A DNA stretch of 64,000 nucleotides from sequence record NC_052657.1; one strand, written 5' to 3'. This stretch comes from Escherichia phage muut. The notes under the pieces were generated by a model. The model was not told the origin of the DNA. It did no database searches and saw only the letters and a list, made by a program, of their open reading frames with translations. The position numbers and the translations under genes were made by a program. Positions 20,265-50,783 of this stretch are shown piece by piece; the stretch's first letter is position 1; each line of letters begins with the position of its first letter.

Positions 20265-21366
20265 TCCTACATTGTATGGTAAAACTTCTACAGGTAAAAT
20301 TAAACAGTGGTCAGTCTATACCGAAGGTAGTGTTGTAACTGTTGCTCATGGTCAATTAGGTGGAAAGATTACTAGCAAATCTTATACAGCAGAACCTAAA
20401 AATATTGGTCGCTCAAATGAAACAACAGCAGAAGAACAAGCTGAAATAGAAGCTCTTGCCAAATGGACAAAACAACTTAAGAATGGGTATTATAAAACAA
20501 AAGAGGAAGCTGAAAACCATGTTCCTTCCACACCCATGAAATGTCAGGATTATAAAGATTATGCTGATCGTGTTTTGTTCCCAGGTTATGCACAATATAA
20601 ATTGAATGGTCTACGTTCAATGATTAACATGCAAGGTGAATGTTTATCTAAAGCTGGGGAAGTATATAAACTTCCACCTCACTGGAAAGAAATTCCAACC
20701 TTCATTAAAGAAGTAGTTGGTCATCCTCTTGATGGTGAAGTTTTTGCTGGTCTGGGTGTCCTTAGCCTTCAACAAATTAATAGTGCGTGGAAAAAGCACA
20801 ATGCTAACACACCGCTTCTTAAATATTATGTATACGATGTTCCTGTGGCATCTGTACCATTTGAGAAGAGGGTTCAAGTTTTGGCTGCTCTAAAAGAAGT
20901 TGTTGAAGATAAAGGTTTAGATGAACTTATTTGTGTAGTACATACAGAGTACATTGAAAACCAAGAACAGTTTGATGCTTTCTATGCAAAAGCTCTACAT
21001 GAGAAAGCGGAAGGTGTGGTGTATCGTAACGCACAAGGTGTTTACGAATTCGATAAACGTTCTTATGATGTTATTAAACGTAAACCACGTCAGACGCTTG
21101 AAGTTAAAGTGGTAAGTGCAAAGCGTGATAAAAATGGTGACGGGGTATTGACAGGCGAGATGGAAAATGGTAAAGTAGTCGAATTCCTGATGCGTAAGGA
21201 TTCAGATGAAACCATTAACTATCGTAAAGCAGAAAATGCCGAAATGTTAATTGGTAAATTTGTTGAGATTGAGTATGAAGAGTTTTCCGATGGTGGAATA
21301 CCTACGAAACCAACAGGTGTCCGTTTACGGGAAATGGTGGAGGGAACATGGGAGCCAAGAGAGTAG
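20251..21366 (+). CDS. ATP-dependent polynucleotide (DNA) ligase
   Basis: Start reset to ATG 20251 (GGAGG RBS); motifs KLNG, LDGEV, EGVVYRN, VIKRK and OB-like C-terminus. Confidence 0.5.
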   Translation: MKQTNPTLYGKTSTGKIKQWSVYTEGSVVTVAHGQLGGKITSKSYTAEPKNIGRSNETTAEEQAEIEALAKWTKQLKNGYYKTKEEAENHVPSTPMKCQDYKDYADRVLFPGYAQYKLNGLRSMINMQGECLSKAGEVYKLPPHWKEIPTFIKEVVGHPLDGEVFAGLGVLSLQQINSAWKKHNANTPLLKYYVYDVPVASVPFEKRVQVLAALKEVVEDKGLDELICVVHTEYIENQEQFDAFYAKALHEKAEGVVYRNAQGVYEFDKRSYDVIKRKPRQTLEVKVVSAKRDKNGDGVLTGEMENGKVVEFLMRKDSDETINYRKAENAEMLIGKFVEIEYEEFSDGGIPTKPTGVRLREMVEGTWEPRE

Positions 21367-21977
21367 ACTTTGTAGGTAAGAAATGCGGTTGTTATACTGT
21401 CTTAGAAGAGATTGAAAGGGACAAACATGGCAAAAGACGTTTTACTTGTTCTTGTGATTGTGGTAATATTTGCACGGTAACTATGGAAACACTTAGGAAG
21501 AATAGAAGTTCTTATTGTTCCAAGTGTAGACCGAAAACAACACAAACAGGAGCATACAAATCGTGGGAAGCTATGTTAGGGAGATGCTATAACAAAAACA
21601 ATACTCACTTTGAATACTACGGTGGTCGTGGTATTAAGGTTTGTGATGCTTGGAGAAATTCATTCTCTGCATTCTTTGAGGATATGGGAGATAGACCTAA
21701 AGGCTTATCTCTTGACAGAATAGACTCGGAAAAAGATTACAGTAAAGAAAATTGTCGCTGGGCTACAAGGTCTGTCCAGTCATACAATACACGAAAACAG
21801 AAAAATAACACTTCTGGTAAAACAGGTGTTGTGTGGAGCGAGAAAGAAAAAAGATGGATTGCTCGTATATCCTATCAAGGAAAAGATATCCGTCTTGGAG
21901 CATTTATTGATATTGAAGATGCTATATCAGCAAGACAGGAAGCTGAAGTATTGTATTTTGGCAAGATTAAAACATAA
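21348..21977 (+). CDS. HNH-family homing endonuclease-like protein
   Basis: Cys cluster (KCGCY...CSCDCG) and segment YGGRGIKVCDAW...SLDRID...NCRWAT seen in phage HNH annotations; overlaps ligase end. Confidence 0.45.
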   Translation: MGAKRVDFVGKKCGCYTVLEEIERDKHGKRRFTCSCDCGNICTVTMETLRKNRSSYCSKCRPKTTQTGAYKSWEAMLGRCYNKNNTHFEYYGGRGIKVCDAWRNSFSAFFEDMGDRPKGLSLDRIDSEKDYSKENCRWATRSVQSYNTRKQKNNTSGKTGVVWSEKEKRWIARISYQGKDIRLGAFIDIEDAISARQEAEVLYFGKIKT

Positions 21978-21988
21978 AGGAGGTTGCA

Positions 21989-22180
21989 ATGAGCATTGAA
22001 GTTATTTTGATTCTTGTGTTGCTTTCTATTGTTGCTTGTGGTATAATTGTCGCATCAACTTTCCCTCACCCAACATGGTGGCAGAAGGCTAGTCTGATGA
22101 TTGTCTACGGTGCAGCAGGTGTACAAATGGGTGCAGTTGTTGTATATCTGGTGGAATTTACAAAACAATATTTTAAATAA
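21989..22180 (+). CDS. small membrane protein (63 aa)
   Basis: Two predicted TM helices. Confidence 0.4.
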   Translation: MSIEVILILVLLSIVACGIIVASTFPHPTWWQKASLMIVYGAAGVQMGAVVVYLVEFTKQYFK

Positions 22181-22189
22181 GGAGAAACA

Positions 22190-22912
22190 ATGATCGAGAA
22201 TTTTTTCAAACAAGTAAAAGTGGACAATAGCTTCTTTATCAAAGCTGCCGATCAAATTGTTGCTTGGAATGCTAAGGCACGTGGTGGAGTAACTCCAGAG
22301 TTTACTCAAGAGATGTTTGAAGCTCAACTTTCTTTTGTACGAGAAGAACTTAAAGAGTTCCAAGCAGCAGCACAGGAAAATGATCACGTTGAATTACTTG
22401 ATGCAGCAGCAGATATTTTTGTGGTAGCATCCTATCTGGCATTTATGTTCTTTGGTAAAGAAGGTGTTGATAAAGCTCTGGAAATGCCGACAGGAGATGT
22501 TCTGGCAGAAAACATTTACGATGTTATCATTGAATTCGATAAAATGGTAGAAAATGACTTGCAATTTGCCTTAATGTCTCTTACACTTACCCGTATGGCA
22601 CGAGATACTTTGGTGCGTTCTGTTTATAACGAGAAGAAGGTTATGCGTGAAGTGTTGAATAGCAATGAATCCAAGTATCCTACCAAGAAGCAACTCCTGG
22701 CTATTTGGGAAACTAAGGATATTATTGAAGCTCTTGAAAAAGAGTGCGATGCTATCGAGATGCGAAGCAAAGATCGTGCAGAAGGTTCTTATACTGGGGT
22801 ACATGCTGTATATAACGAAGTTCAAAAGGTATACGTATTCTTTGATGACAAAGGTAAAATTATGAAACCATCTACCTTTGTTAAACCTAATATCGCAGCA
22901 ATCATTGCTTAA
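22190..22912 (+). CDS. MazG-like NTP pyrophosphohydrolase (tentative)
   Basis: REELKEF...DHVELLDAAADIFVVA resembles the MazG/HisE EExxE...DxxD metal-binding helix pair. Confidence 0.35.
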   Translation: MIENFFKQVKVDNSFFIKAADQIVAWNAKARGGVTPEFTQEMFEAQLSFVREELKEFQAAAQENDHVELLDAAADIFVVASYLAFMFFGKEGVDKALEMPTGDVLAENIYDVIIEFDKMVENDLQFALMSLTLTRMARDTLVRSVYNEKKVMREVLNSNESKYPTKKQLLAIWETKDIIEALEKECDAIEMRSKDRAEGSYTGVHAVYNEVQKVYVFFDDKGKIMKPSTFVKPNIAAIIA

Positions 22913-22919
22913 GAAATAA

Positions 22920-22939
22920 AGCCCCTTCGGGGGCTTATT
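22920..22939 (+). terminator. putative terminator hairpin (UUCG loop)
   Basis: AGCCCC-ttcg-GGGGCT then TATTGG; T-run weak. Confidence 0.35.
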
Positions 22940-22948
22940 GGAGGTATT

Positions 22949-23227
22949 ATGTTAACAGCAGAAGATATCTTTAAACACGGTTTGCGTCAGGTAATCAAAT
23001 CCTTGAAGAATGCAGGTATTGAAGATATCACACAGGAAATTGTTGGTTTAGAAAAAGAAGGTAAGAGAACAGAGTTTAAGTTTTACACAGAAGAACAGTG
23101 GCTGAGTAATCCGCAAAACAAAGCTAATGAGGCTGTTAGTCTGTTTGGTAAATCTTATAAAGGATTTAAATATCCTGATCATATTGTCGAATATGATGGT
23201 GTAAAATATTTTGTAGTTATTATTTGA
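22949..23227 (+). CDS. hypothetical protein (92 aa)
   Basis: Track ORF. Confidence 0.4.
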   Translation: MLTAEDIFKHGLRQVIKSLKNAGIEDITQEIVGLEKEGKRTEFKFYTEEQWLSNPQNKANEAVSLFGKSYKGFKYPDHIVEYDGVKYFVVII

Positions 23228-23237
23228 GGAGAAAACT

Positions 23238-24122
23238 ATGTTTGCTAAAAATTTCAAATCTTGCGTAACCCTGATTTCTGGTGATGGTCTGTCTATTTCC
23301 GCACTGAACACAGTAACAGACAAACCGCTGGATTTTGTTGTGGCACAGGGGCAACAAGCACATACCATTGGTCTTGTTCGTTTTGAAGATGATGGTTCCT
23401 ATGTAAAAGTGTTCTCTGGTTTAGAGGTTATTAAAGTAGGGCAATCTGTTAAGAAAGTTAACAAGAAAAAAGTTAAACGCATTCTTAATGAAAAACTCCA
23501 AGAGATGGAACAAGAGTTTATTGCTGCAAATCCTACTAAAGAATTCTTCTTGGATAAAGAAAGTAAAAAAGCAATTGAGGCTGATATCGTGTTTTCTCTG
23601 CTCCCAGAAACAGAGGCAGATGATTTCTATAACTATGTTGTTGTAGACACTGAGAACAGTATTACCTACGTTCTTAATGGTACTAAGAAAATTAGTGAAG
23701 ATATTGCTGTGTTTCTTCGTGAGGTGTTGGGTACTTTCCCAGTTCTGCCGTTTAGTGTACACGAAGAAGCCATTATTAAAGGTTTTGATACCATCTTAGA
23801 AGAACATGAGGCTGAACGACTGACCCTTGGTAATTATATTAAACTTGAAGATTCTGAAGGTGTGGTTGTATGGAGTAAAGAATCCCTTTATGAATCTCGT
23901 GCAGTAGAACTTATGGAAGATGGTAAGCACGTTGTTGCCATTGGCCTGGAATATGACGGTTTCGTTAACTTTATTGTTGATAAAGAATTTAAGTTGAGTG
24001 GTATTAAATTCCCTAAATACTTTAACGATGAAGAAGGATCTTTTGAAGCATCTGTCCTTCTGTGCTTTAATGAAATCCGTGGTATTATGCAAGACCTTAT
24101 TAAGTCAACTATTCAAAAATAA
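23238..24122 (+). CDS. hypothetical protein (294 aa)
   Basis: Track ORF; no motif recognised. Confidence 0.45.
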   Translation: MFAKNFKSCVTLISGDGLSISALNTVTDKPLDFVVAQGQQAHTIGLVRFEDDGSYVKVFSGLEVIKVGQSVKKVNKKKVKRILNEKLQEMEQEFIAANPTKEFFLDKESKKAIEADIVFSLLPETEADDFYNYVVVDTENSITYVLNGTKKISEDIAVFLREVLGTFPVLPFSVHEEAIIKGFDTILEEHEAERLTLGNYIKLEDSEGVVVWSKESLYESRAVELMEDGKHVVAIGLEYDGFVNFIVDKEFKLSGIKFPKYFNDEEGSFEASVLLCFNEIRGIMQDLIKSTIQK

Positions 24123-24125
24123 TAC

Positions 24126-24155
24126 TTGACTTACTAATTTAATATGTGTTAATAT
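24126..24155 (+). promoter_or_regulatory. sigma70-like promoter (TTGACT-18-TAATAT) followed by 5-prime-UTR hairpin
   Basis: -35 TTGACT at 24126; 7-bp hairpin 24156-24178; then AAGGAGA RBS and ATG 24197. Confidence 0.5.
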
Positions 24156-24196
24156 GCCTACCTACTTAGTTAGGTGGGCTTTTAAGGAGACACACC

Positions 24197-24409
24197 ATGA
24201 AAAAACTTCTTGTCGGTTTACTTTTAGTAATCAGTTCTTATTCTTATGCTGGTCAAATAACTTTAATTAATTCTGGAGAACAAGTTTCTGGAAGTACAAA
24301 ATACTGTTTTTACTCTAACGGTATGTACGACAAGGTTATAGAGGTTTCTGCAAGTCGTCAGTGTCCCTACACACGAACATTCTCAACAGAGAGTTCAGAT
24401 GATGAATAG
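24197..24409 (+). CDS. small secreted protein (70 aa)
   Basis: N-terminal signal peptide MKKLLVGLLLVISSYSYA. Confidence 0.4.
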   Translation: MKKLLVGLLLVISSYSYAGQITLINSGEQVSGSTKYCFYSNGMYDKVIEVSASRQCPYTRTFSTESSDDE

Positions 24410-24417
24410 GAGGTAAT

Positions 24418-25536
24418 ATTAGCGGTTACATTTTAATCCAACCGGAAGACCTGCACAAATATGTTGACGAGAACACAATTCTTGCAATAGACTACGATCA
24501 AGTGGCGTTCCAAGCATCTTCAGCTTTAGAGCAAAGAAAAATCCACGCTGTACACAAGGCTTCCGGTAATGTAAAAGAGTTTGAAACAAGAACAGATTTT
24601 TGGGGTAAATCTTCAAAAAATATTGGAGGATGGTTAGGAGCACTTAACGCGCAACGCGAAGCTGCTGGTAAGAAGTTGTTCTCCAAGGAAGATTTTGAAA
24701 TAAAAGATGTTCAAATAGTCCCAGAGAATATTTCTTTTACGTTTCAAGCTGCAAAGACAAAAATAACCCAGATGGTGGATCACCTAAAACTTCAAAAGTA
24801 TTGCGGTGTCATCGGGGTAGGAAAAACCTTCCGGCATTCTTTCAAAATGCCAAAAGAATATAAATCAGAACGATCAGATTTAAGACCAATCCAATTATCA
24901 GATACTAAAGATTATCTAGTTGAAAAACATAACGGTGACGTTGTTACTGGTATTGAGGCAGATGATGCTTTAGAAATCTATGGATATGCAGGGTATAAAG
25001 CCTACAAGGAAACTGGTAAGTTTTCTCATATTGTAGCATCTATCGACAAAGATAGCTTACACACACCAAGTTTACTCTTTAACTTTTATAAAGAGGATGG
25101 TGTTTATAAAAATCCTTGTGTTATTCTGATTGATGAATCTATCGGTGATATCTGGATCGTAGAAAAAGGTAAGAAAAAAGAAGTTAAGGGTTGGGGTAGT
25201 TACTGGTTAGCTTATCAAATGCTAATGGGCGATAAGACAGATAGTATTCGACCTTACCAAGATTTCGATGTTAAGTTTGGAGATATTACTTGCTTTAATC
25301 TTATTTCCAAATGTAAAACACAGGCTGAACTTTTTCAGACAGTTAAAGATCAGTATTATGAATGGTTCCCAGATGGCGTTAAATTTACTTCTTGGGATGG
25401 TGAAGAAGTAGAAATGACAACTGATGAATGGATAGAGACAATTTTTCAGTTGGTATATATGAAACGTTGGGCGAATGATGAAACAACTTTTGAAAGTATG
25501 CTACAAGCATATATTTCAGAGCAGGAGGAACATTGA
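24418..25536 (+). CDS. rnh: RNase H / 5-prime-3-prime flap exonuclease (T4 rnh-like); non-AUG start likely
   Basis: Motifs ILAIDYDQVAF, EADDALEIYG, SIDKDS, MGDKTDSIRP; conserved N-terminus lies upstream of first in-frame ATG/GTG. Confidence 0.65.
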   Translation: MSGYILIQPEDLHKYVDENTILAIDYDQVAFQASSALEQRKIHAVHKASGNVKEFETRTDFWGKSSKNIGGWLGALNAQREAAGKKLFSKEDFEIKDVQIVPENISFTFQAAKTKITQMVDHLKLQKYCGVIGVGKTFRHSFKMPKEYKSERSDLRPIQLSDTKDYLVEKHNGDVVTGIEADDALEIYGYAGYKAYKETGKFSHIVASIDKDSLHTPSLLFNFYKEDGVYKNPCVILIDESIGDIWIVEKGKKKEVKGWGSYWLAYQMLMGDKTDSIRPYQDFDVKFGDITCFNLISKCKTQAELFQTVKDQYYEWFPDGVKFTSWDGEEVEMTTDEWIETIFQLVYMKRWANDETTFESMLQAYISEQEEH

Positions 25537-26495
25537 GTAAATTAACAGACGAACAGAAAGCCTTGATTGTATCTATGAAAGCACAAGGTTATTCTTCGCG
25601 TAAGATTGCACAAGAGGTGTTGGGAAGTTCTACTAAGAAGAGCACAGTAAATGATTACTTAGCTCGTGTAAATTCACCACATCGCGGTGCTCCGCAAGAT
25701 AAAGGTGGGCCAGTAATTAAAATTATTGACGTAGAGACAGCACCGGAGATTGTGTATAGCTTCTCACGTTTCAAAGCCTTTATTGCACCTGAACAAGTTA
25801 TTCGTCGAGGTTACTTGCTTTCCTATTCATCTGCTGATTTAGAAACAGGGGAAGTAGAAGGTAAGAACCTTAGCAATTACCCTCTGTTTGACATAGATCA
25901 TACAGATGATTGGGAATTATGTCAAGATCTGTGGCACTTGCTTGACGATGCAGATATTGTGATCGCGCACAACGGTATTAAGTTTGATAAGGCTTATATT
26001 AACCAACGTTTTGCTTTTCACGGTATGGAGCCACCATCACACTATGTTGTAATTGATACACTCAAGGCAGCTAAGAAGCAGTTTGCACTACCTTCTAATG
26101 CGCTTAAAGAAATGTGTTTGTATTTTGATACAGAAAACTTTAAACTTGACAATGAAGGTTTTCCTTTGTGGAAAGCATGTTGTGAAGGAGACAGACACGC
26201 CTTCTTCCGTATGCAAACATACAACGATGGTGATGTTGTTTCTCTTAGAGATCTTTACATCAAACTTCGTGCGTGGATTCCACAACATCCTAACGTATCT
26301 GCATTCTATGACGATGAAAAACTTCGTTGTCCTCGTTGCGGTAAAGAGCACCTTGAAGTTGTTCCTGGTAAGGTTTACACAACAGCGGTTAGTACATTCC
26401 AAGTGCTAAGATGCACATCATGTAATAGCCTGTCTCGTGGACGTGTTAATTTGCGTAGCAAAGAGAAGCGTGTAAACACTGTTATTGGAATTTAA
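25533..26495 (+). CDS. DEDD-family 3-prime-5-prime exonuclease with N-terminal HTH and C-terminal zinc ribbon
   Basis: Exo motifs IIDVETAPE and AHNGIKFDKAYI; C-terminal CPRCG...CTSCN. Confidence 0.5.
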   Translation: MSKLTDEQKALIVSMKAQGYSSRKIAQEVLGSSTKKSTVNDYLARVNSPHRGAPQDKGGPVIKIIDVETAPEIVYSFSRFKAFIAPEQVIRRGYLLSYSSADLETGEVEGKNLSNYPLFDIDHTDDWELCQDLWHLLDDADIVIAHNGIKFDKAYINQRFAFHGMEPPSHYVVIDTLKAAKKQFALPSNALKEMCLYFDTENFKLDNEGFPLWKACCEGDRHAFFRMQTYNDGDVVSLRDLYIKLRAWIPQHPNVSAFYDDEKLRCPRCGKEHLEVVPGKVYTTAVSTFQVLRCTSCNSLSRGRVNLRSKEKRVNTVIGI

Positions 26496-26500
26496 TAAAA

Positions 26501-26524
26501 AGGGGCGAAAGCCCCTTTATTTTT
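26501..26524 (+). terminator. rho-independent terminator (GNRA loop)
   Basis: AGGGGC-gaaa-GCCCCT followed by TTATTTTT. Confidence 0.6.
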
Positions 26525-26533
26525 GGAGGATTT

Positions 26534-26935
26534 ATGACTACAGCACTGGATATTCAAATTGATGGTGATCACTACAAACGTATGCGTATGCAACCTTTGG
26601 AACTTGCATATCTAATTGGTGCAACTCCTTGTTTCACTAAGTTAGCTAAGTATGCTTGTCGAAACAAAGGTGATCGTGTGATCAACCTAAACAAAGCGAT
26701 TCACGTTATTCATATTGAAAAAGAATTGAGTGATAAATATTACAATATGTTGTATGAAGCCTACCCTAACTTAAAAAATCCTGTAAAAATTGAGTTAGCT
26801 AATCAGCTAATTGATTTATACACAGACGATGATCTTGTTCGTAAGGCTTTAAAAGCAATGTATAAAGGTAAGTATATTGAAGCAGCAGATGCTATTGAAC
26901 AATTGAAGGAGAGTGTAGATGGCTTCTCACGGTAA
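26534..26935 (+). CDS. hypothetical protein (133 aa)
   Basis: Track ORF with AGGA RBS. Confidence 0.45.
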   Translation: MTTALDIQIDGDHYKRMRMQPLELAYLIGATPCFTKLAKYACRNKGDRVINLNKAIHVIHIEKELSDKYYNMLYEAYPNLKNPVKIELANQLIDLYTDDDLVRKALKAMYKGKYIEAADAIEQLKESVDGFSR

Positions 26936-27113
26936 ACAATACGGAGAGGGTGAAGTATATAAAATATACAATAAACGTGGAGATAAACTCCTATATACAA
27001 TCACAATCCCAGAAAACATGTGTAAGGCTGGTTTAGACCGTATGCTTTTCTTTAAATATAACATTCCACCTGGAGATTATGTAGCTAAAAAGGTGAGCAC
27101 TATTGGAAAATAA
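26919..27113 (+). CDS. hypothetical protein (64 aa)
   Basis: Track ORF. Confidence 0.35.
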   Translation: MASHGKQYGEGEVYKIYNKRGDKLLYTITIPENMCKAGLDRMLFFKYNIPPGDYVAKKVSTIGK

Positions 27114-27678
27114 AGAACCTAAAGTTATTTGGGGAGATGGAACACCTTGGAAAACTCAAGCAGCCTTTTATACATATTTAAGGGGTTGCTTAAGGAAAGC
27201 ATGGGTGAGACACCCGAATAAGATAAAAAAGATCCAATCTGTACGATTTAAAGCCGATAGGTTGGATAAAGATGGCAATGTAGTTTTAGATAAGAAAACA
27301 GGCAAACCGAAACAGGTTTGGAATTGTCAATGTGAATTGTGTGGACATACAGGAGGTATGAAAGACTTTCAAGTAGACCATATTAATGCAGCAGGTACAT
27401 TAACCTGTTATGAAGATATCCCAAGTTTTGTTTTACGCCTATTATATGTAACAGAAGACGATCTGCGTGTAGTTTGTAAGCAGTGTAACGCTATCCTAGC
27501 TTATGCTGACAAGCACGATATGACATTCAGGGAAGCAAAAGCGGAGAAGGAAGCGATAGCTTTATGCCAGTCTAAAAAGGATAAAAATTGGCTAACGAAG
27601 CGCGGAATTTCACCAGAAAGTACAGTAAGTAAGCGAAGAAAACAAATAGTAAAAATTCTTCTTGACGAAGAGAAATAA
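27103..27678 (+). CDS. HNH endonuclease-like protein
   Basis: CQCELCGH...FQVDHINAAG...CKQCN fits HNH His-Me finger with zinc ligands. Confidence 0.5.
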   Translation: MENKEPKVIWGDGTPWKTQAAFYTYLRGCLRKAWVRHPNKIKKIQSVRFKADRLDKDGNVVLDKKTGKPKQVWNCQCELCGHTGGMKDFQVDHINAAGTLTCYEDIPSFVLRLLYVTEDDLRVVCKQCNAILAYADKHDMTFREAKAEKEAIALCQSKKDKNWLTKRGISPESTVSKRRKQIVKILLDEEK

Positions 27679-27723
27679 TAAAGTATTATCGCTCCCACAA
27701 ATGGGAGCGTTAGAGGAGAAAAT

Positions 27724-28287
27724 ATGGCTAAACTTTATTTCCGATATAGTCCAATGAACAGTGGTAAAAGCACACATCTTCTACAAACAGCTTGGAACTA
27801 TAAAGAAAGAAATATGAAAGTTCTTCTTTTAACTTCAGCTTTAGATACCAGATCTGGTTGTGCTATTGCTTCTAGGATAGGTATTAAAGAGGAAGCAAAA
27901 CCAGTTAAAACAAAAGAAGATATGCTGGAAATTTATACACAACTTAAAGAAAATCCAGTAGATGCAGTATTTGTGGACGAATCACAATTCCTAACTAAAG
28001 ATATGGTTGACATTCTTGGAGATGTGGTAGATAATTACGATATTCCTGTATTCTGTTATGGACTTAAAACAGATTTTGCTACAGAATTGTTTGAAGGTTC
28101 TGAACGGTTATTAGCCATAGCAGATTCAATTACAGAATTGAAAAGCATTTGTAAATGTGGAAGAAAAGCTATTTTCAATGCTAGACTTATCGACTCTAAA
28201 GAACAGATTGTTATTGGGGGAGAAGACATTTACGAAACAATGTGTAGAAAATGTTATAACAGGAGAAATAATGCGTCTAGTATGTGA
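27724..28287 (+). CDS. tdk: thymidine kinase
   Basis: Near-collinear with E. coli Tdk: P-loop MNSGKST, DESQFL, C-terminal zinc motif CKCGRKA...CRKCY. Confidence 0.9.
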   Translation: MAKLYFRYSPMNSGKSTHLLQTAWNYKERNMKVLLLTSALDTRSGCAIASRIGIKEEAKPVKTKEDMLEIYTQLKENPVDAVFVDESQFLTKDMVDILGDVVDNYDIPVFCYGLKTDFATELFEGSERLLAIADSITELKSICKCGRKAIFNARLIDSKEQIVIGGEDIYETMCRKCYNRRNNASSM

Positions 28288-28861
28288 TTGGGATTTAGTA
28301 ATAGCTCCTGCGGATATAGAATGGTTAAATTGGTTAAATGCGGTAAGTAGATCTAATATCAAATTTGATAAGGCACATAAGACTGTGCATTATGATATTA
28401 CGAAATATTTTCCTGATTTTAAAAAACAATTTGGTGTAGATCCTTACTCTTTTTGGGATAACCAACATCTATATGATACTATGGGAGTAGTACCTAATAG
28501 TACAGATGTTGTTCATCGTATAATTGCAAATGGAGCTAATATATCTATAGCAAGCCACACTAAGGGTGGACACCTTAGTTCTAAATATAGACACGTAACA
28601 CGATCTTTAGATAAAGTGGACTTTAGTAGAACATCTGGTAATGGCTTTTTCGCAACAAAAGAAAAATACTTATTACCTTGCGACGTAACTATTGACGATA
28701 GGGCTGAAAATCTTGTCCTATTTCCAGATGAAACGTTGAAAATATATTTCAACACTATTTACGAAGATCCATACTTGGAAGAGTTAAAGAAACTTCCTAA
28801 TGTAATTATCACTGGTTTAGATAATCAGTGGGAAGAAATTGAAAGTATTTTACTACCTTAA
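28271..28861 (+). CDS. HAD-family 5-prime(3-prime)-deoxyribonucleotidase-like protein (tentative)
   Basis: Start reset to ATG 28271 (AGGAG RBS); DxD motif (VCDWDLV) and DD motif (TIDDRAEN). Confidence 0.4.
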   Translation: MRLVCDWDLVIAPADIEWLNWLNAVSRSNIKFDKAHKTVHYDITKYFPDFKKQFGVDPYSFWDNQHLYDTMGVVPNSTDVVHRIIANGANISIASHTKGGHLSSKYRHVTRSLDKVDFSRTSGNGFFATKEKYLLPCDVTIDDRAENLVLFPDETLKIYFNTIYEDPYLEELKKLPNVIITGLDNQWEEIESILLP

Positions 28862-28870
28862 GGAGAAATA

Positions 28871-29842
28871 ATGACAAACTCTATTTCAGCAAAAATTATT
28901 GCACACTCTCAAACATCTGAAGGTAAGGATATTGTTACCTTTGAACTTGAATATCCTCGAATCATTCACTCTGAATTGATGACGCATCGTTTGTTTTCTC
29001 GTAATGCCGCATCAAGTCGAGCTATCCCTGTTAAAACTCTAATTGAAATGGTACGGCAATCTCCCGCACGTCCTTATCGTTTTGGTGCTAACCAACCAGG
29101 TATGCAAGATAAAGGCACAGATCACGATGCCCTGATTGATGCAGGTTACACTGCAAAAGAATGGTGGGACTTGGCTGCGCTAAGTGCTGCACGTTTTGCA
29201 GAAGAGTTTGCCCTTGCTGGTTATCATAAACAGGTTGCAAACCGCCTACTAGAACCATTCCAGCGTATGAAGACTGTAGTAACCACTACAGAGCTAGAAA
29301 ACTTCTTGTGGTTGCGCGTAGATGCTGATGCAGATCCTACTATTGAGGCTCTTGCTAAAGAAATTAAAAAACTGTATGAATCTTCTGAACCATATCTTCT
29401 TTTCCCAGGGGAATGGCATACACCTTACGTTAATCGTGATCGAGATCCAGAAACTGGTATGATCCGTTATTTCTTGGGTGAAACCTTCTCCAACGAGAAA
29501 ATGTTGACAGAAGAGGAAGCAAAAGCTATTTCAGCTTCTTGTTGCGCTCAGGTAAGTTATCGTAAATTGAATGATACTAAAGATAAAGCATTGGATATCT
29601 ATTCTCGTTTGCTGTCTGGACAAAAGGTACATGCATCTCCGTTTGAACACCAGGCAACACCAATGAAAGAAATGGATTTGTCAGGATTAAAACAACAGAA
29701 AGGTGGTATTAATATTCCTCCGTTCCCTACTTCTTGGGAAGAAGGTATTACACACATGGATCGTAAACATCGTTTGTGGAGTGGAAACTTCTGTGGTTGG
29801 ATTCAACATCGTCAACTTTTGACTAACCATACAAAATGGTGA
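28871..29842 (+). CDS. thyX: flavin-dependent thymidylate synthase
   Basis: ThyX signature RHRLFSRNAASSRAIP (RHRxxSxxxxSxR). Confidence 0.85.
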   Translation: MTNSISAKIIAHSQTSEGKDIVTFELEYPRIIHSELMTHRLFSRNAASSRAIPVKTLIEMVRQSPARPYRFGANQPGMQDKGTDHDALIDAGYTAKEWWDLAALSAARFAEEFALAGYHKQVANRLLEPFQRMKTVVTTTELENFLWLRVDADADPTIEALAKEIKKLYESSEPYLLFPGEWHTPYVNRDRDPETGMIRYFLGETFSNEKMLTEEEAKAISASCCAQVSYRKLNDTKDKALDIYSRLLSGQKVHASPFEHQATPMKEMDLSGLKQQKGGINIPPFPTSWEEGITHMDRKHRLWSGNFCGWIQHRQLLTNHTKW

Positions 29843-29859
29843 TCAACTTAAAATTATAG

Positions 29860-32884: not shown

Positions 32885-32891
32885 TGAAACT

Positions 32892-32912
32892 AGGGGGCTT
32901 TGTCCCCCTTTC
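32892..32912 (+). terminator. putative terminator/attenuator hairpin between nrdA and next gene
   Basis: AGGGGG-ctttgt-CCCCCT followed by TTTCTT. Confidence 0.4.
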
Positions 32913-32924
32913 TTAAGGAGGAAT

Positions 32925-33260
32925 ATGCCTACATTAGTTGTATTACCTGGGGCAACACCACAAAGACGCTGGGGAAATTATACACTGGTAGATAGTAAAG
33001 ATTTTACATTCGATTGGTGTTGTCATTATATTGCAGGTTTTCAATTTTCCAGTGTTGAAATATGGGCTTCCAATGATCCCATAGCTACCTGGTATGCTTT
33101 AACCAGAGCAAGGTATGAGGGAGAGGTTACTATACTACTCACAAAGAGTGTATGGGACGCATTAGAGAAGGCTTACCTAGAGGATGGTATGGAGAGAGAA
33201 CACATTGATACAATAAAAGCAATGTGTGATATTGTGGAGGATTTAAATGGCAGCAATTAA
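32925..33260 (+). CDS. hypothetical protein (111 aa)
   Basis: Start reset to ATG 32925 (AAGGAGG RBS) so that terminator hairpin is not translated. Confidence 0.4.
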   Translation: MPTLVVLPGATPQRRWGNYTLVDSKDFTFDWCCHYIAGFQFSSVEIWASNDPIATWYALTRARYEGEVTILLTKSVWDALEKAYLEDGMEREHIDTIKAMCDIVEDLNGSN

Positions 33261-41555: not shown

Positions 41556-41564
41556 TCTAGTATA

Positions 41565-41585: not shown

Positions 41586-41595
41586 AGGAGGAGAT

Positions 41596-42523: not shown

Positions 42524-42767
42524 GAGGAGCATTTTTATGACCGAGAAATTTATTGTTACTATGGAACTCACCTTTGATGAAGAAGATTTTGATCTTCACG
42601 TATCAACTAAAGCAGATAACATTCACACGACACAGAGTGTTGCAATCGCTATGTTCTTTAAGCAAGCAATTGCAAAACAAGCTGAAGTGTGTGCTGGTTT
42701 AGCTGTAGAGTACGCAGAAGTTGTCAAGGTTCTTGAAAGTGCTCGCAACAACGATTGGGATGAATAA
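42516..42767 (+). CDS. hypothetical protein (83 aa)
   Basis: Track ORF. Confidence 0.4.
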   Translation: MFKRSIFMTEKFIVTMELTFDEEDFDLHVSTKADNIHTTQSVAIAMFFKQAIAKQAEVCAGLAVEYAEVVKVLESARNNDWDE

Positions 42768-42970
42768 TGGCATACAATTACTATCTGGTATATTTTAACG
42801 AAACTAAGAAAAAAGACACAGGAACTAATGTTTATGCGGAATCGGAAGAACACGCAAAAGCTATTGGTTCAGTGCTTCTTTCTAGAATAGCAGGTGAAGA
42901 AATTCCTGTAGAGGCTATCTTTGCAGAAGTTGACCCTGGTATTCAAGAAGATGATATTACCACTACTTAA
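42767..42970 (+). CDS. hypothetical protein (67 aa)
   Basis: Track ORF. Confidence 0.4.
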   Translation: MAYNYYLVYFNETKKKDTGTNVYAESEEHAKAIGSVLLSRIAGEEIPVEAIFAEVDPGIQEDDITTT

Positions 42971-42973
42971 CTG

Positions 42974-43002
42974 TTGACTTTAACATTGAGGTAGTGCATA
43001 CT
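42974..43002 (+). promoter_or_regulatory. sigma70-like promoter (TTGACT-17-CATACT) followed by hairpin
   Basis: Hairpin TCCTGT-aacaga-ACAGGA at 43003-43020, then GGAGGG RBS and ATG 43028. Confidence 0.5.
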
Positions 43003-43027
43003 TCCTGTAACAGAACAGGAGGGTATT

Positions 43028-43690
43028 ATGAAGTTTGTACTGTATCATCGACTTTCTAAGAAGAAACAACAAGGCAACCAGTATGGTATAGAATCACAGG
43101 AAGCAGATATCCAACGCTTCCTGGATTCACAAGAAAATTATACTATTGTAGGTAGCTTTGCAGAGTTTTATTCTGGTAAAGGCGATTGGAAGCAACGTAG
43201 AGAGCTTGTAAAAGCTGTTAATCTTTGCAAAGAAACAGGTGCTACACTTGTTGTTGCTAAGGTTGACCGTCTTGGACGTAACACAGCTTCTGTTGCAACC
43301 TTGTTAGAGATGATTAATGTACGGATAGCCACTATGCCCTCCGCTGAAAATATGATAATAAATATTTTAGCAGTTCTGGCAGAAGAAGAGGCTCGTGCAA
43401 TATCTGATCGTGTTAAGAAGAGCCTTAAGGTAGCAAAAGCGAAGGGAACGCTTCTTGGTGCAGCAAACCCTAAATACAAAAGAACAGATTATACGAAAAC
43501 GGAAGAAGCAAAACGCTCAAAAGAGTTTGCACTTTCTTTAAAAGATTCTTTAGTTGCATACAGAGCTTGTAAAACGCCATATATGACGATTGCAAAGCAT
43601 CTGAATGAATCAGGAAAGAGAACTATTCGTGGGAGTTTGTTCGATGCCAAAGCGGTACAACGTCTTTGTGCAAAATTGAATATTAAATAA
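43028..43690 (+). CDS. serine recombinase (resolvase/invertase family)
   Basis: N-terminal YHRLSKKKQ (catalytic Ser), VVAKVDRLGRN, C-terminal HTH-like region. Confidence 0.7.
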   Translation: MKFVLYHRLSKKKQQGNQYGIESQEADIQRFLDSQENYTIVGSFAEFYSGKGDWKQRRELVKAVNLCKETGATLVVAKVDRLGRNTASVATLLEMINVRIATMPSAENMIINILAVLAEEEARAISDRVKKSLKVAKAKGTLLGAANPKYKRTDYTKTEEAKRSKEFALSLKDSLVAYRACKTPYMTIAKHLNESGKRTIRGSLFDAKAVQRLCAKLNIK

Positions 43691-43699
43691 GGAGGAAAC

Positions 43700-43903: not shown

Positions 43904-43914
43904 AGGAGTTAAAT

Positions 43915-44487: not shown

Positions 44488-44497
44488 GGAGAAGGGG

Positions 44498-45887: not shown

Positions 45888-45897
45888 GGAGAAAACC

Positions 45898-46981: not shown

Positions 46982-47235
46982 AAGGTTTAGAGTTTAACTT
47001 TGTAGATGCGTGGGAAGGATGGGATGAACTAGGAGTAGGGGATTTATGTTTTTATGATGTTACCTTGAAGGAAGAATACAAACATCTAGCCCCTAGTGAA
47101 GATTGCGATGTGATTCTATCTATTCTATTAAGTCAGTCTATAGTGCAATTTGATTTTCTAAAAGGTAGTGAGTGTATTGAAAGTAAAGCATTCCGTTTAG
47201 AAGTTTCTCTTGGTGAAGAAGTTCCTGTAGAATAA
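46978..47235 (+). CDS. hypothetical protein (85 aa)
   Basis: Track ORF. Confidence 0.4.
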   Translation: MKGLEFNFVDAWEGWDELGVGDLCFYDVTLKEEYKHLAPSEDCDVILSILLSQSIVQFDFLKGSECIESKAFRLEVSLGEEVPVE

Positions 47236-47239
47236 TATA

Positions 47240-47263
47240 AACCCGCTTCAGCGGGTTTTTTGT
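47240..47263 (+). terminator. rho-independent terminator
   Basis: AACCCGC-ttca-GCGGGTT followed by TTTTTT. Confidence 0.7.
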
Positions 47264-47291
47264 TGACAACACCAGTTTTTTCGAATAAACT
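47263..47291 (+). promoter_or_regulatory. sigma70-like promoter (TTGACA-17-TAAACT)
   Basis: Immediately after terminator; precedes RBS and ATG 47321. Confidence 0.45.
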
Positions 47292-47320
47292 ACAGAAAAA
47301 CAGAAGAGGAGAAGATTAGC

Positions 47321-47731
47321 ATGTACTATAGTGACTATTTTGTAAACCCAACAAAAGAACAACTTCAATCAGCAGCGGATAAGATGCAGATTGTAGTTAA
47401 AGAATGTGAGAAAATAAGAAAACAACTACAAGAAGAGATTGTTGTTGTTAATAAATGGTTTGGTCTTAAGAAGAAAATTGTTAGTAAACACAATATCATC
47501 CTTGAAAAAGCAAAAACGACAGGAACTAGTTACGCCTTACAAGCCTTGTTACTAAATTACATTGATATAGAACAACATTCTCTTCTGCACTGTTGGCTTA
47601 ACAGCCCTAGTATTGAGAATCTCTTGTTCTGGTTATCGTGTGAATCTGTACTTTTAAATGAGAATGAGGCTTACCGTTTAAACTTCTGCCTCAAGGCAGA
47701 ATTACCAGCTAGTGTTAAGGAGAAGAAGTAA
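47321..47731 (+). CDS. hypothetical protein (136 aa)
   Basis: Track ORF. Confidence 0.45.
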   Translation: MYYSDYFVNPTKEQLQSAADKMQIVVKECEKIRKQLQEEIVVVNKWFGLKKKIVSKHNIILEKAKTTGTSYALQALLLNYIDIEQHSLLHCWLNSPSIENLLFWLSCESVLLNENEAYRLNFCLKAELPASVKEKK

Positions 47732-47733
47732 TA

Positions 47734-48723
47734 ATGAAAGTTTTAAGTCTTTTTGATGGTATGTCAGGAGGAATGCTTGCGCTAAAAAGTGCAGGTATTG
47801 AAGTAGATACATATTACGCTTCAGAATTAGACAAATTTGCCGTAGCTGAAAGCCAAGCAAATTTTCCAGATATTATTCAGTTAGGTGATGTTACAAAATG
47901 GAGAGAATGGGATATCCCGTGGGGAGAAATTGATCTTTTGTTAGGTGGTAGTCCGTGTCAAGGCTTCTCTTCTTCTGGTAAGGGTTTGAACTTTCAAGAT
48001 CCGCGATCTAAGTTATTCTTCGAATATGTTGAAATTCTTGAACATATTAAAAAGTTTAATCCTAATGTTAAGTTCATGCTTGAAAACGTTAAGATGAAAG
48101 TGGAGTGGGAAAACGTGATCACAAGTTACTTAGGTGTTGATCCCGTATTCATTAACTCCGCAGATTTCACGGCACAGAATAGACAACGTTTATACTGGTG
48201 CAACTGGGAAATAAAACCCTGGGAGATTACCAATGAAGTGTTGCAAGATATCATTGAAGATGATAGTATTGTAGACAGAGATAAGGCTTATTGCATAGAT
48301 GCAAATTATGCCAAAGGTGGTAATATAGAACAGTATTTTGAAAAGAGTCGCAGACAACTGGTTTTTTATCCGGCAGCAATATATGGGCGTAGAATTAATG
48401 AAAATGGCAAACGTAGTACATCTAAAACTGATCGTTTGGTACATTGTTTGGAAGTTCAGGACAGTGAAAAAACTCGTTGCCTCACGACTGTGCCTAAAGA
48501 CGTACTATTAGCCTACATTCCACCTGGAAGATATCTAGATGCTTTTGAAAAATTGAGTGAAGGCGTACATTATAGAAAGTTAACGGTTAAAGAGTGTTGC
48601 CGCTTGCAAGGTGTGCCAGATGATTACTTTAAAGTGAGTAGTAACACACAAGCATATAAGATGTTAGGTAACGGTTGGACTATACCTGTCATTGCACATA
48701 TTCTTAAATGTATGGAGGAATAG
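47734..48723 (+). CDS. dcm: DNA (cytosine-5)-methyltransferase
   Basis: Motif I LFDGMSGG, PC motif GGSPCQGFS, ENV motif (FMLENV). Confidence 0.8.
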   Translation: MKVLSLFDGMSGGMLALKSAGIEVDTYYASELDKFAVAESQANFPDIIQLGDVTKWREWDIPWGEIDLLLGGSPCQGFSSSGKGLNFQDPRSKLFFEYVEILEHIKKFNPNVKFMLENVKMKVEWENVITSYLGVDPVFINSADFTAQNRQRLYWCNWEIKPWEITNEVLQDIIEDDSIVDRDKAYCIDANYAKGGNIEQYFEKSRRQLVFYPAAIYGRRINENGKRSTSKTDRLVHCLEVQDSEKTRCLTTVPKDVLLAYIPPGRYLDAFEKLSEGVHYRKLTVKECCRLQGVPDDYFKVSSNTQAYKMLGNGWTIPVIAHILKCMEE

Positions 48724-48848
48724 TGGAAACATTGTGGAAAGGCTGGAAGACTGCTCTGATAGCCTTTATAATTCCATTAACTTTTCTTGGTTGGTGTTTT
48801 TGGGAATTTATCTTTTGGTTAATTTCCCATATACATTGGGGGTAATAT
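48723..48848 (+). CDS. small hydrophobic protein (41 aa)
   Basis: Sub-cutoff ORF, GTG start after GGAGG RBS; one TM helix. Confidence 0.3.
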
Positions 48849-49458
48849 GACTCAAAAAGTTGCATATCAAGTAGATCGTGAAGACGGTGAAGGTAGTGTT
48901 GTAGTTTTTGATACACATGGTCTTGCAGCAAGACGCAAAGGTGCTTGTCTACTGGACATTGGTGGTGAAGATGAATACTGCACTGTACGTAGAGTAAAAG
49001 AATTTGATCAATATGCTGAAAAAGGTTTTGTACCTGCAAAAGCACTATTAGAAGCTGGATGGTGGATACCTAGTGCACATGATTATGATATTTTGGAATC
49101 AGATACAGACGATTTTAACAGTGAAGATTTTGTTTTTTCTCTGGATGAAAAATGCGTTTGGAAAGATTGGGATGAAATGGAACGCCATGCTTATTTTATA
49201 AACGAAGCATTAGATCGTAAAACTTGGTTTGAGAATACAGTTAAAGCAGCGTATCCTCAATTTACTTTTACAGAATTTTGGGGTGGCCCACACCATATTA
49301 CTCATGTGGCATACTTCGAGTTCCCAGGCTCACGCTATAAAGGTACTGTCTATTGGGATTGGGACGAGGACAAAGAACCTTCTGCTCAAGACTTCCGTTG
49401 CTATGTTTGTCAAGGTGATCAAGAAGCCCTTGACAAGTACCTTAAAAGTCTGGTATAA
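48847..49458 (+). CDS. hypothetical protein (203 aa)
   Basis: Track ORF. Confidence 0.45.
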   Translation: MTQKVAYQVDREDGEGSVVVFDTHGLAARRKGACLLDIGGEDEYCTVRRVKEFDQYAEKGFVPAKALLEAGWWIPSAHDYDILESDTDDFNSEDFVFSLDEKCVWKDWDEMERHAYFINEALDRKTWFENTVKAAYPQFTFTEFWGGPHHITHVAYFEFPGSRYKGTVYWDWDEDKEPSAQDFRCYVCQGDQEALDKYLKSLV

Positions 49459-49459
49459 T
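49430..49459 (+). promoter_or_regulatory. consensus sigma70 promoter (TTGACA-18-TATAAT) overlapping stop of upstream gene
   Basis: Perfect hexamers; followed by hairpin 49477-49495, GGAGGA RBS and ATG 49513. Confidence 0.55.
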
Positions 49460-49476
49460 CCGTAAAACTTAACCAA

Positions 49477-49499
49477 AGCCCCAAGCAGGGGCTTTATTT
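49477..49499 (+). terminator. hairpin with T-run (terminator and/or 5-prime-UTR stem-loop)
   Basis: AAGCCCC-aagca-GGGGCTT followed by TATTTG. Confidence 0.45.
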
Positions 49500-49512
49500 G
49501 TCTGGAGGATAT

Positions 49513-50046
49513 ATGGGTTTTGATGACATGTTATTATATGAGGAGGCTTGTGTGAAAGAAGCTATGGCTTTACCAGTTTTATCTATTGATATTACAACAG
49601 TAGACACTTTTTCAGATTGTGAAACGTGTGGATCGTATTCGTCTATTGTACATGAAGTTAGTGGGGATTTAGGCACTTACGAAGATGGAGATTATGCAAG
49701 TTGTTTAGGTGATAATCGAGATGGTGAAGTGGCGAATGTTGCAAACTGGATTGCTTCTAAGTTAAAAGAAAGAAATCGTCCGTTCCCTAATCTTCTTACA
49801 CCAGAAGCTATGCTTAAAGCTGAACAAGAGATGTATGATTATGGTTATAAAGTAGATTATGACTATAATGATCCTAAATATAAAAAATTGAGTGACAAGT
49901 ATTGGGAACTAGCTAATGCTTATGATAAATACTACTCTACAGAAAACATTGTTAAATTGTTTTTAGATTTTGGAGTAGAAATTAATTGGGATTTCGAAGA
50001 GGAAGAGCGTTACGACGCATCTTCTTGGGAGGACGAGGGTGAATGA
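49513..50046 (+). CDS. hypothetical acidic protein
   Basis: Start reset to ATG 49513 (GGAGGA RBS). Confidence 0.4.
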   Translation: MGFDDMLLYEEACVKEAMALPVLSIDITTVDTFSDCETCGSYSSIVHEVSGDLGTYEDGDYASCLGDNRDGEVANVANWIASKLKERNRPFPNLLTPEAMLKAEQEMYDYGYKVDYDYNDPKYKKLSDKYWELANAYDKYYSTENIVKLFLDFGVEINWDFEEEERYDASSWEDEGE

Positions 50047-50783
50047 TAGAACGAAAACCCTTACCAGATAGAGATTACTTGTTATCAAGGTTTAGTGTGG
50101 AGAATGGTCGTCTTGTTTGGAAACCTAAACCTTCTACAACAAAAGAGAACAAAAGGTGGAATAGCAGATACGCAGGGAAGATTGCAGGGACTATTGATAA
50201 AGCTGGTTACTCTCATGTCAAAATAGATGGTATTGTATACTTGGAGCACAGAGTTTGTTTTAAAATGTATCATAATTACTGTCCAGATGTTATAGACCAT
50301 GATGACGGCAATAAACTTAATAATGCGGAAAGTAATTTATTGGATAGTAACTATTTATTAAATAATAACAATAGACACGTGGATGGGTTAGAAGGTATTT
50401 ATGAAAAGGATGGTGTTTTTCTTTGGGTTATAAACTACAACCAAGAAACTTTCTCTGTTTCAGGTTTCAAAACTAAAGAGGAAGCTATTGTAGCTAGAGC
50501 TTTAGCAAAACAAGAAATTTTGAAAGGATCTTATATCAAAAAAGAAAAGAAGCGTATAGATAACACTTCAGGATTAAGCTGTGTGTTTGTGGCAACAAGA
50601 GAGAGAACATTCTTTTTCAAGTTTGTGTTTGACAAGATCACGTATTGCAAATATGGTTTCAACGATCCAGAGAGATGTGCTATAGCTCTGGAGAAACTAA
50701 GATTGAAGGTGATGAAAGAAAAATATAAACCTGCAAATAAAAGCATTTGCGAAAAATATAAGGAGGAGATTTATGCCGCGTAG
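50043..50783 (+). CDS. HNH homing endonuclease with AP2-like DNA-binding domain
   Basis: HNH motif VIDHDDGNKLNNAESNL; downstream SGFKTKEEAIVARALA AP2-like segment. Confidence 0.65.
   Translation: MIERKPLPDRDYLLSRFSVENGRLVWKPKPSTTKENKRWNSRYAGKIAGTIDKAGYSHVKIDGIVYLEHRVCFKMYHNYCPDVIDHDDGNKLNNAESNLLDSNYLLNNNNRHVDGLEGIYEKDGVFLWVINYNQETFSVSGFKTKEEAIVARALAKQEILKGSYIKKEKKRIDNTSGLSCVFVATRERTFFFKFVFDKITYCKYGFNDPERCAIALEKLRLKVMKEKYKPANKSICEKYKEEIYAA

Follow-up and report, generated by a model that had tools for sequence, protein, structure and literature searches.

Among the free-standing endonucleases of phage T4, SegG near gene 32 and MobE between nrdA and nrdB home without an intron and co-convert flanking markers. 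Homing endonuclease infestation of large coliphages, together with the associated gene conversion, is well known (PMC8594841 and PMC10448857), and comparable systems include the HNH(HNN)-AP2 homing endonucleases (I-HmuI/HNH_3, His-Me finger group 2; Magnani et al. 2004; PMC2248197; PMC5714182) and the putative IPA-HNH homing endonucleases of phage ICP1 (gp59, gp115, and gp209; Barth, Dunham & Seed 2023, PMC10448857). In Xanthomonas phages, dispersed HNN-AP2 genes are found alongside single-copy CX2C-HNH genes that keep a fixed position (PMC2248197). Here, we analyzed a 64,000-nucleotide stretch of Escherichia phage muut (NC_052657.1; hereafter, the window), in which an initial annotation had marked three open reading frames (ORFs) as HNH-type endonuclease genes, scattered through the early region beside conserved metabolic genes in the manner of free-standing homing endonucleases: ORF1 at the 3′ end of a DNA ligase gene, ORF2 upstream of the thymidine kinase gene tdk, and ORF3 upstream of a Sir2-family gene (Table 1). 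The three ORFs lie on the plus strand at exactly the coordinates reported and beside the neighbors named, and the term early region is reasonable for a region filled with DNA-metabolism genes.

Our results indicate, with a probability of roughly 0.75, that the three ORFs represent two classes: a mobile type comprising ORF3 and, less certainly, ORF1, and a core nuclease, ORF2. They are placed in different classes because ORF2 is universal and co-diverged with its neighbors, whereas ORF1 and ORF3 are sporadic, the same split as in the Xanthomonas phages. The proposed role as free-standing homing endonucleases fits well for ORF3, is plausible for ORF1, and does not hold for ORF2. Support for the HNH-type label also differs: it combines a sub-threshold Pfam match with invariant residues for ORF3, consists of motif and fold for ORF2, and comes without a Pfam HNH match for ORF1. 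When gene order was compared with that of relatives, empty sites were found for ORF3 and a replaced block for ORF1, whereas ORF2 was present in all of them. There is no new kind of system among the three ORFs, which are ordinary phage biology.

ORF3 and the chimeric Sir2 gene

Megablast searches against 50,697 phage records showed that window regions 20000–29000 and 47500–52000 are 98–99% identical to VEcB, ESCO8, PaulScherrer, phi92, and ~50 other Justusliebigvirus records, and 60–90% identical to Phapecoctavirus records. Judged from this similarity, the window is part of a phi92-like coliphage, a myovirus of the genus Justusliebigvirus. DNA of ORF3 was present in only seven of the 50,697 records, which correspond to six phages, three from Justusliebigvirus (BME3, KKP_3264, and KKE7M) and three from Phapecoctavirus (nepoznato, DIJ07P2, and ECML-183-2). 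All copies are 98–99% identical and every one lies between a gp039-like gene and Sir2, including the frameshifted copy of ECML-183-2. Two metagenomic phage contigs likewise have a homolog (~70% amino acid identity) immediately upstream of Sir2.

In phi92 and ~50 other relatives, gp039 overlaps Sir2 directly, i.e., the site is empty (in UAB_1, 20 bp stand in place of the 741 bp at window 50037–50777). The ORF3 cassette (~0.77 kb) replaces ~50 bp of this overlap between the 3′ end of gp039 and the 5′ end of Sir2. Its left junction, based on occupied and empty sites in both genera, is at ~50030 (...TGGGA/GGACGAGGGTGAATG, where the slash marks the junction), and its right junction is at ~50800, within the first nine Sir2 codons, which are recoded in carriers. 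The cassette provides gp039 with a new stop and a new C-terminus (...WEDEGE, stop) and Sir2 with a new Shine-Dalgarno sequence (AAGGAGG). At its start, ORF3 shares the sequence ATGA with the stop of the gp039-like gene, and at its end it shares 11 nt with the Sir2 start. The cassette edges are the sharpest identity discontinuities of the 47.5–52 kb region, and this is true in two genera.

Approximately 570 bp of the Sir2 5′ end travel with ORF3. This tract is 91–100% identical to the allele of nepoznato, a member of the other genus, whereas it is 45–77% identical to the phi92-type allele. Between the window and nepoznato, the gp039-like proteins share 41% amino acid identity with a synonymous-site divergence (pS) of 0.63, pS is 0.056 in ORF3, and within Sir2 it is 0.11 for codons 1–190 and 0.86 for codons 191–272. 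The comparison with phi92, which belongs to the same genus as the window, is the mirror image: pS is 0.10 in the gp039-like gene, ORF3 is absent, and Sir2 has a pS of 0.78 for codons 1–190 and 0.08 from codon 191 to the end. Because pS switches at codon ~190, in opposite ways for nepoznato and phi92, the coding sequence of Sir2 in the window is a chimera of an allele linked to the homing endonuclease gene (HEG; codons 1–190) and the resident Justusliebigvirus allele (codons 191–271). An identical switch point was found in Sir2 when nepoznato was compared with its HEG-less relative nieznany.

The HEG-linked Sir2 allele (at least 95% identity) was identified in eight phages, five with ORF3 and three without it (UAB_1, PD114, and cardinal), and the sixth ORF3 carrier, DIJ07P2, has a shorter tract. 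Identity in this segment is ~67% in other Justusliebigvirus records and 71–79% in other Phapecoctavirus records. The tract ends at ~51370 in Justusliebigvirus, at ~51310–51370 in nepoznato and ECML-183-2, and at ~51070 in DIJ07P2, and these three different endpoints therefore require at least three conversion events. In addition, the HEG-less nieznany contains a 180-bp patch (window-equivalent 50893–51072) with 93–100% identity to the HEG-linked allele.

The ORF3 protein carries the two domains, HNH plus AP2-like, that the initial annotation had given it. The Pfam HNH_3 match is weak (E = 1e-4; 22.2 bits, just under the cut-off of 24.8); nevertheless, its small family shows no variation at D85-H86, N98, or N107/N110, residues that correspond to the HNH_3/I-HmuI-type motif with a catalytic D-H, a structural N, and a metal-binding N, and three relatives carry PF13392. 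The AP2 domain is located at residues ~113–160. A second AP2-like repeat at the C-terminus, possibly degenerate, aligned in register with a non-significant probability of 6%. ORF3 resembles the HNH(HNN)-AP2 homing endonucleases in its D-H...N...N motif followed by AP2, and also in its intergenic position beside a conserved gene, sporadic presence, and decay by frameshift. Unlike these relatives, its family is very small (four clusters in 5.8 billion proteins), is specific for the site upstream of Sir2, and scores just under the Pfam threshold.

ORF3 is interpreted as a free-standing, homing-endonuclease-type selfish gene, a reading that fits the comparative data well, because it is sporadic, occupies the same site in two genera, is far more similar than its flanks, where substitutions between the genera have reached saturation, is accompanied by a co-converted flank and an altered presumed target, and has empty sites and a decayed copy. 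Downstream of the insertion point, at a distance of ~25 nt, are the codons for the sirtuin NAD-binding motif GAGxSxxSGIP, and these are heavily recoded in the carrier allele; this recoding and the position point to the start of Sir2 as the probable target. The finding that HEG-less genomes carry only the downstream tract suggests a cut site within Sir2, displaced from the insertion site, as in the T4 seg and mob genes. With SegG and MobE, ORF3 shares a location between conserved genes, the transfer of donor flanks, and HEG-less recombinants with a converted flank; unlike them, it has other nuclease and DNA-binding families, is known from comparisons only, and spans two phage genera.

In the proposed mechanism, during co-infection with a relative lacking the gene, the AP2 domain (in ORF1 joined by a CapR zinc finger, see below) would recognize a sequence in or beside the conserved neighbor, namely the Sir2 start (GAGxSxxSGIP region) for ORF3, and the ligase 3′ end or gp090 for ORF1. 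The endonuclease protein would then nick or cut this sequence, and repair by recombination, with the endonuclease-carrying genome as template, would bring in the gene along with donor DNA from its flanks. The locus of ORF3 and Sir2 provides a clean natural case of gene conversion associated with an endonuclease gene across a genus boundary, yielding a chimeric sirtuin gene, and since the empty, converted-only, and decayed states all exist in sequenced, culturable E. coli phages, homing is directly testable here. For phylogenetics and phage engineering, regions 21250–22163 and 50030–51370 should be masked as horizontally exchanged.

Additional features were observed around the Sir2 site. In nepoznato, an ORF1-like frame (36% amino acid identity; record positions 42637–43284), annotated as an HNH endonuclease, lies a few kilobases upstream, and a metagenomic contig has an 89-amino acid PF01844 HNH gene (contig positions 1906–2175) at a similar distance; these nuclease-like genes in related phages suggest a local cluster. 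Just upstream of the gp039-like gene in the window, positions 49430–49495 comprise a perfect TTGACA-18-TATAAT with TG, followed by a GC-rich hairpin, in a region where the total of promoter-like sites is not above chance. A terminator-like hairpin follows Sir2 (51596–51613), and the number of terminator-like sites in 47.5–52.5 kb is 10, versus 2.2 expected.

ORF1 and the replaced block at the ligase gene

ORF1 overlaps the ligase stop (the ligase gene ends at 21366) by 19 nt, and the sequence around it differs from that of phi92. A blastn gap was found at window 21330–22163, which corresponds to 208 bp in phi92, and ligase identity to phi92 drops from 98% to 86% (21200–21299) and then to 52% (21300–21399). 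The last ~120 bp of the ligase gene (from ~21250, ~40 codons) thus belong to the ORF1-linked block, and the ligase C-terminus reads ...LREMVEGTWEPRE before the stop in the window, versus ...LRKMIPGTWEPAE in phi92. ORF1 and its block (98–100% identity) were found only in VEcB, PaulScherrer, and ESCO8, i.e., 3 of ~50 close relatives. On the other side of ORF1, the window-type gp090 allele is present only in ORF1 carriers, with ~78% identity to Phapecoctavirus alleles, unlike the phi92 type. At other polymorphic loci, the ORF1 carriers are unlike the window, and the block thus assorts independently. ORF1 combines sporadic presence with replacement of both flanks (ligase 3′ end and gp090 allele), and only one block type is known. 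A metagenomic homolog (82% identity) has an equal 19-nt overlap with the upstream gene and is followed by a 65-amino acid ORF.

The ORF1 protein is composed of a CapR-type zinc finger (residues ~1–62; 21348–21533), an HNH-derived beta-beta-alpha domain (~63–150), and an AP2 domain (~155–205) that had been overlooked in the initial annotation. It matched phrog_374 'HNH endonuclease' (E = 4e-71), whereas no Pfam HNH match was found for ORF1 or its 33 homologs; AP2 (PF00847) was matched by 21 of the 34 family members. In the AlphaFold2 model (predicted local distance difference test, pLDDT, 90), the C-terminus matched the AP2 domains of AtERF1 and TEM1 (1GCC and 7ET4; Foldseek probability 1.0), and a beta-beta-alpha element is present at residues 121–146. 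Profile-profile comparison of the ORF1 and ORF3 families (94%, E = 1e-7) aligned L-D123-R124-I-D of ORF1 with I-D85-H86-D-D of ORF3. The central domain (~90 residues) has 14 invariant residues including D123 and N135, and N147 is nearly invariant, i.e., metal-site positions are conserved, whereas the HNH_3/I-HmuI catalytic motif is absent from ORF1, with Arg at the His position. The corresponding residue is Lys in ICP1 gp59 and phi92 gp074.

The ORF1 family shows homology to ICP1 gp59 (hhalign 97.4%, E = 1.2e-11), and this homology, together with the lack of a Pfam HNH_3 match and the C-terminal AP2 domain, places ORF1 in the IPA-HNH class. ORF1 resembles its ICP1 counterparts also in its position beside a replication gene; unlike gp59, it has an additional N-terminal CapR-type zinc finger, and Arg instead of the Lys of gp59 and phi92 gp074. 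The family is very large, with 7,838 or more proteins and matches in 1,766 phage records, and has members clustered near polymerase, ribonucleotide reductase (RNR), and terminase genes, and one match in a Staphylococcus phage overlaps an annotated group I intron. On these grounds ORF1 is a plausible homing gene, less well shown than ORF3, and its chemistry is uncertain because the IPA-HNH class has Arg or Lys in place of the canonical catalytic His. In annotation, the products of such genes would be better described as CapR + HNH-like + AP2 proteins in which the canonical His is missing.

The Cys-rich N-terminal part of ORF1 (residues 1–62) is homologous to the CapR zinc finger of CasPR, a type of anti-CRISPR repressor (hhalign 99.3%, E = 4e-20), using a CasPR sequence that was decoded from the gene blocks in Table S1 of the preprint (bioRxiv 10.64898/2026.02.23.707548). 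Both proteins combine CapR with AP2, including the C-terminal AP2 motif ...EDAIxAR.EAE..YF. Nevertheless, ORF1 was rejected as a CasPR: it keeps the conserved HNH-derived domain of ~90 residues where CasPRs have a ~45-residue linker, and it occurs in a lytic coliphage in the context of ligase and NTP-pyrophosphohydrolase (NTP, nucleoside triphosphate) genes, whereas CasPRs belong to anti-CRISPR (acr) loci of Bacillota prophages. A CasPR resembles an ORF1-type protein minus its central HNH-like domain, as though this had been lost.

Evidence against mobility and alternative readings

Several points weigh against the two-class reading as set out here. Homing by the ORF1 and ORF3 proteins and their close relatives is deduced from comparisons, with cleavage and target both putative. 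The Pfam scores of ORF2 and ORF3 are under the curated cut-offs. In ORF1, R124 is invariant in 34 of 34 homologs at the catalytic His position (H86 of ORF3), and a PDB fold search with the whole ORF1 model found only AP2, leaving the central domain unmatched to I-HmuI. The four ORF1 carriers, including the window, share one identical block, and a single acquisition followed by ordinary recombination is possible; similarly, ordinary homologous recombination at a hotspot could in principle spread the tract shared by ORF3 carriers without a nuclease. Finally, the function of ORF2 is a guess, and confidence in any specific role is low, with modeled folds matching only the generic small HNH protein 4H9D and unnamed family members.

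The main rival for ORF1, which we consider improbable, holds that it is not a nuclease but an HEG-derived, sequence-specific DNA-binding regulator or silencer (CapR/CasPR-like), with its patchy distribution resulting from accessory-gene exchange. The invariant Arg in place of the catalytic His and the family-wide lack of a Pfam HNH match would fit such a protein, as would the homology of its zinc finger to that of CasPR anti-CRISPR repressors and the C-terminal AP2 domain that ORF1 also shares with CasPRs. However, the central domain absent from CasPRs is kept by thousands of relatives, with D123, N135, and N147 conserved, and a position in a replaced block, next to an essential gene and with divergent flanking alleles, is what homing genes show. 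The location of family members near polymerase, RNR, and terminase genes, with one match on an annotated intron, and an E. coli phage context without an acr-locus signal argue in the same direction, and we retain ORF1 as a putative homing gene.

A His general base is near-universal in His-Me finger nucleases. Its replacement by Arg or Lys in the IPA-HNH class could mean that gene conversion is catalyzed in a non-canonical way, or that none of these proteins cleave, with tight CapR and AP2 binding provoking recombination or silencing a competitor gene as a step towards CasPR-type repressors. This broader idea is speculative and rather unlikely; if true, ORF1 would be a coliphage example that is testable at a defined ligase/gp090 junction. 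Two side results are of modest interest: the exchange of His for Arg or Lys in this class, and the CapR domain that connects it with CasPRs.

A second rival treats both ORF1 and ORF3 as passive cargo, with mosaic flanks produced by general homologous or illegitimate recombination among co-infecting Stephanstirmvirinae. These phages are generally mosaic, there are other indels without nuclease genes (window 32852–33229 and 61000–61330), the HEG-less nieznany has its HEG-linked Sir2 patch, and the nuclease role of both proteins is predicted from sequence only. On the other hand, no discontinuity in the 47.5–52 kb region is sharper than those lying precisely at the ORF3 cassette, and this in two genera; between these genera, identity is ~98% for the cassette plus its tract but 41% for the adjacent gene; recoding of the carrier allele extends over a conserved motif next to the insertion point; and the association with this site is old enough for 30% protein divergence. 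Passive transfer is judged to be quite unlikely, less probable still than a non-nuclease ORF1.

ORF2 as a probable core nuclease

ORF2 lies between gp082 and tdk (27724–28287; Pfam TK E = 1e-54), which starts 45 nt after it, in a cluster of exonuclease and nucleotide-metabolism genes. Its Pfam HNH score (16 bits) is under the cut-off, and it matched phrog_1985 (E = 3e-66). In the CxxC...DH...CxxCN motif, no variation was seen at C77, C80, D92, H93, or N129, and very little at C125 and C128. The AlphaFold2 model (pLDDT 95) matched the Gme HNH nicking endonuclease 4H9D over 59 columns (probability 0.98), and the other fold matches were unnamed phage family members only. With the single-copy CX2C-HNH proteins (group IV of PMC2248197; 4H9D; HK97 gp74), ORF2 shares two Cys dyads that flank D-H, the lack of AP2, and a fixed position. 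It differs from them in lying not beside terminase but in an exonuclease/tdk/ThyX module, in having Asn as the last catalytic residue (HNN), and in carrying helical extensions at both the N- and C-terminus that are conserved but have no structural match.

Using tblastn, ORF2 was found as a single copy in all 54 close records (at least 95% amino acid identity) and in 78 records from neighboring genera (60–80%), and more distant copies were identified in Pseudomonas phages (Pakpunavirus and Nankokuvirus), ICP1, and Rheinheimera phages. In KPP10 and ICP1 (gp179), it is likewise embedded among exonuclease genes. Between the window and nepoznato, ORF2 is 75% identical (pS 0.70; ratio of nonsynonymous to synonymous divergence, dN/dS, 0.09), as diverged as its neighbors (DnaQ-like exonuclease, 74%; gp082, 75%; ThyX, 76%), and the left neighbors are unchanged. 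Because it is present in every relative, syntenic, and co-diverged with its neighbors under purifying selection, ORF2 is, by these comparisons, a vertically inherited core gene and not mobile. Presence at the same locus in all relatives, 54 close and ~78 neighboring-genus records, speaks directly against the homing role that the initial annotation had assigned to it, and phi92 gp081-type genes should not be called homing endonucleases. Most likely, the protein would act with the neighboring exonucleases, nicking or cleaving DNA during its replication, recombination, or processing.

The least probable rival, which we regard as very unlikely, is that all three ORFs are homing genes and that ORF2 was swept to fixation or domesticated across the phage group: a nuclease domain with extra N- and C-terminal domains beside conserved metabolic genes, the listing of its ICP1 homolog gp179 as a putative homing gene on domain architecture by Barth et al. 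2023 (PMC10448857), and the label 'homing endonuclease HNH' on family members in many records favor it, but the gene keeps one position in all close records and in sister genera, saturation at synonymous sites equals that of the neighboring genes, with a low dN/dS, and the comparisons revealed neither an empty site nor a decayed copy, nor one whose similarity was discordant.

Two further assignments of ORF2 were rejected. A T4 endonuclease VII-type resolvase has a similar CxxC..DH..CxxCN motif, but the Pfam Endonuclease_7 match was poor (E = 0.068; 13.5 bits versus a cut-off of 23.6), and no endonuclease VII match was found in the top 50 listed PDB/BFVD fold matches or in the PDB profile search. 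A terminase-associated packaging HNH protein of the HK97 gp74 type was ruled out by the gene context in all genera examined.

Feature coordinates and other polymorphic sites

All three ORFs are annotated coding sequences in related GenBank phages. Their GC content and GC content at third codon positions are unremarkable relative to the window, i.e., there is no compositional sign of foreign origin, and a phmmer search of the rest of the window for paralogs, covering the three ORFs and phi92 gp074, was negative. PDB sequence searches with the three proteins and with the ORF1 and ORF2 family profiles returned no nuclease, only L31 zinc ribbon noise and AP2, and an NCBIfam search with the proteins returned nothing useful. 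Promoter and terminator scans around ORF1 and ORF2 gave sites at chance level only. Coordinates are given in Table 1.

Table 1 Features of the three loci in window coordinates.
Feature	Position	Strand	Details
ATP-dependent DNA ligase	20251..21366	+	Pfam DNA_ligase_A_M E=2.5e-11, phrog_114
ORF1-linked block, ~0.9 kb in place of ~0.2–0.3 kb phi92-type sequence	21250..22163	.	blastn gap, sliding identity, census
ORF1, putative homing endonuclease, IPA-HNH class	21348-21977	+	209 aa, ATG
gp090-like small membrane-protein gene, divergent allele	21989..22180	+	strictly ORF1-linked
ORF2, zinc-ribbon HNH (HNN) putative nuclease, phi92 gp081 ortholog	27103-27678	+	191 aa, TTG
Candidate sigma-70 promoter, consensus 12/12 plus TG	49430..49459	+	pattern match only; heads gp039-like/ORF3/Sir2 unit
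ORF3 cassette	50030..50800	+	alignment with empty sites of UAB_1, phi92, nieznany
ORF3, putative free-standing homing endonuclease gene	50043-50783	+	246 aa, ATG; HNH_3 + AP2
Sir2-family gene, chimeric	50773..51588	+	Pfam SIR2 E=3e-20
Co-converted Sir2 5′ tract, HEG-linked allele	50801..51370	+	identity comparisons

A third polymorphic intergenic site is located at 32850–33260, between nrdA (30623–32884) and nrdB (33247–34332). Here, a 136-amino acid ORF (phrog_17458) is found in the window and in 46 of 54 related records; the IPA-HNH-like gene gp074 (motif VLDKDL) occupies the site in phi92 and VivaForever, and the content is different again in VEcB, ESCO9, UAB_1, and PD114. Within the gene at 19105–19509, a homolog of the phi92 gp095 ATPase gene, positions 19200–19400 form a patch that is 70–85% identical to phi92 between flanks of 94–100%, a small mosaic tract without an adjoining nuclease gene. 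At 61000–61330, 331 bp of the window are absent from phi92, which has 45 bp instead, and this segment contains an 82-amino acid ORF on the minus strand (61036–61284, phrog_17168). Near the left genome end of phi92, window positions 63041–63635 have no megablast alignment to phi92 and differ from it in length (595 bp versus 514 bp).

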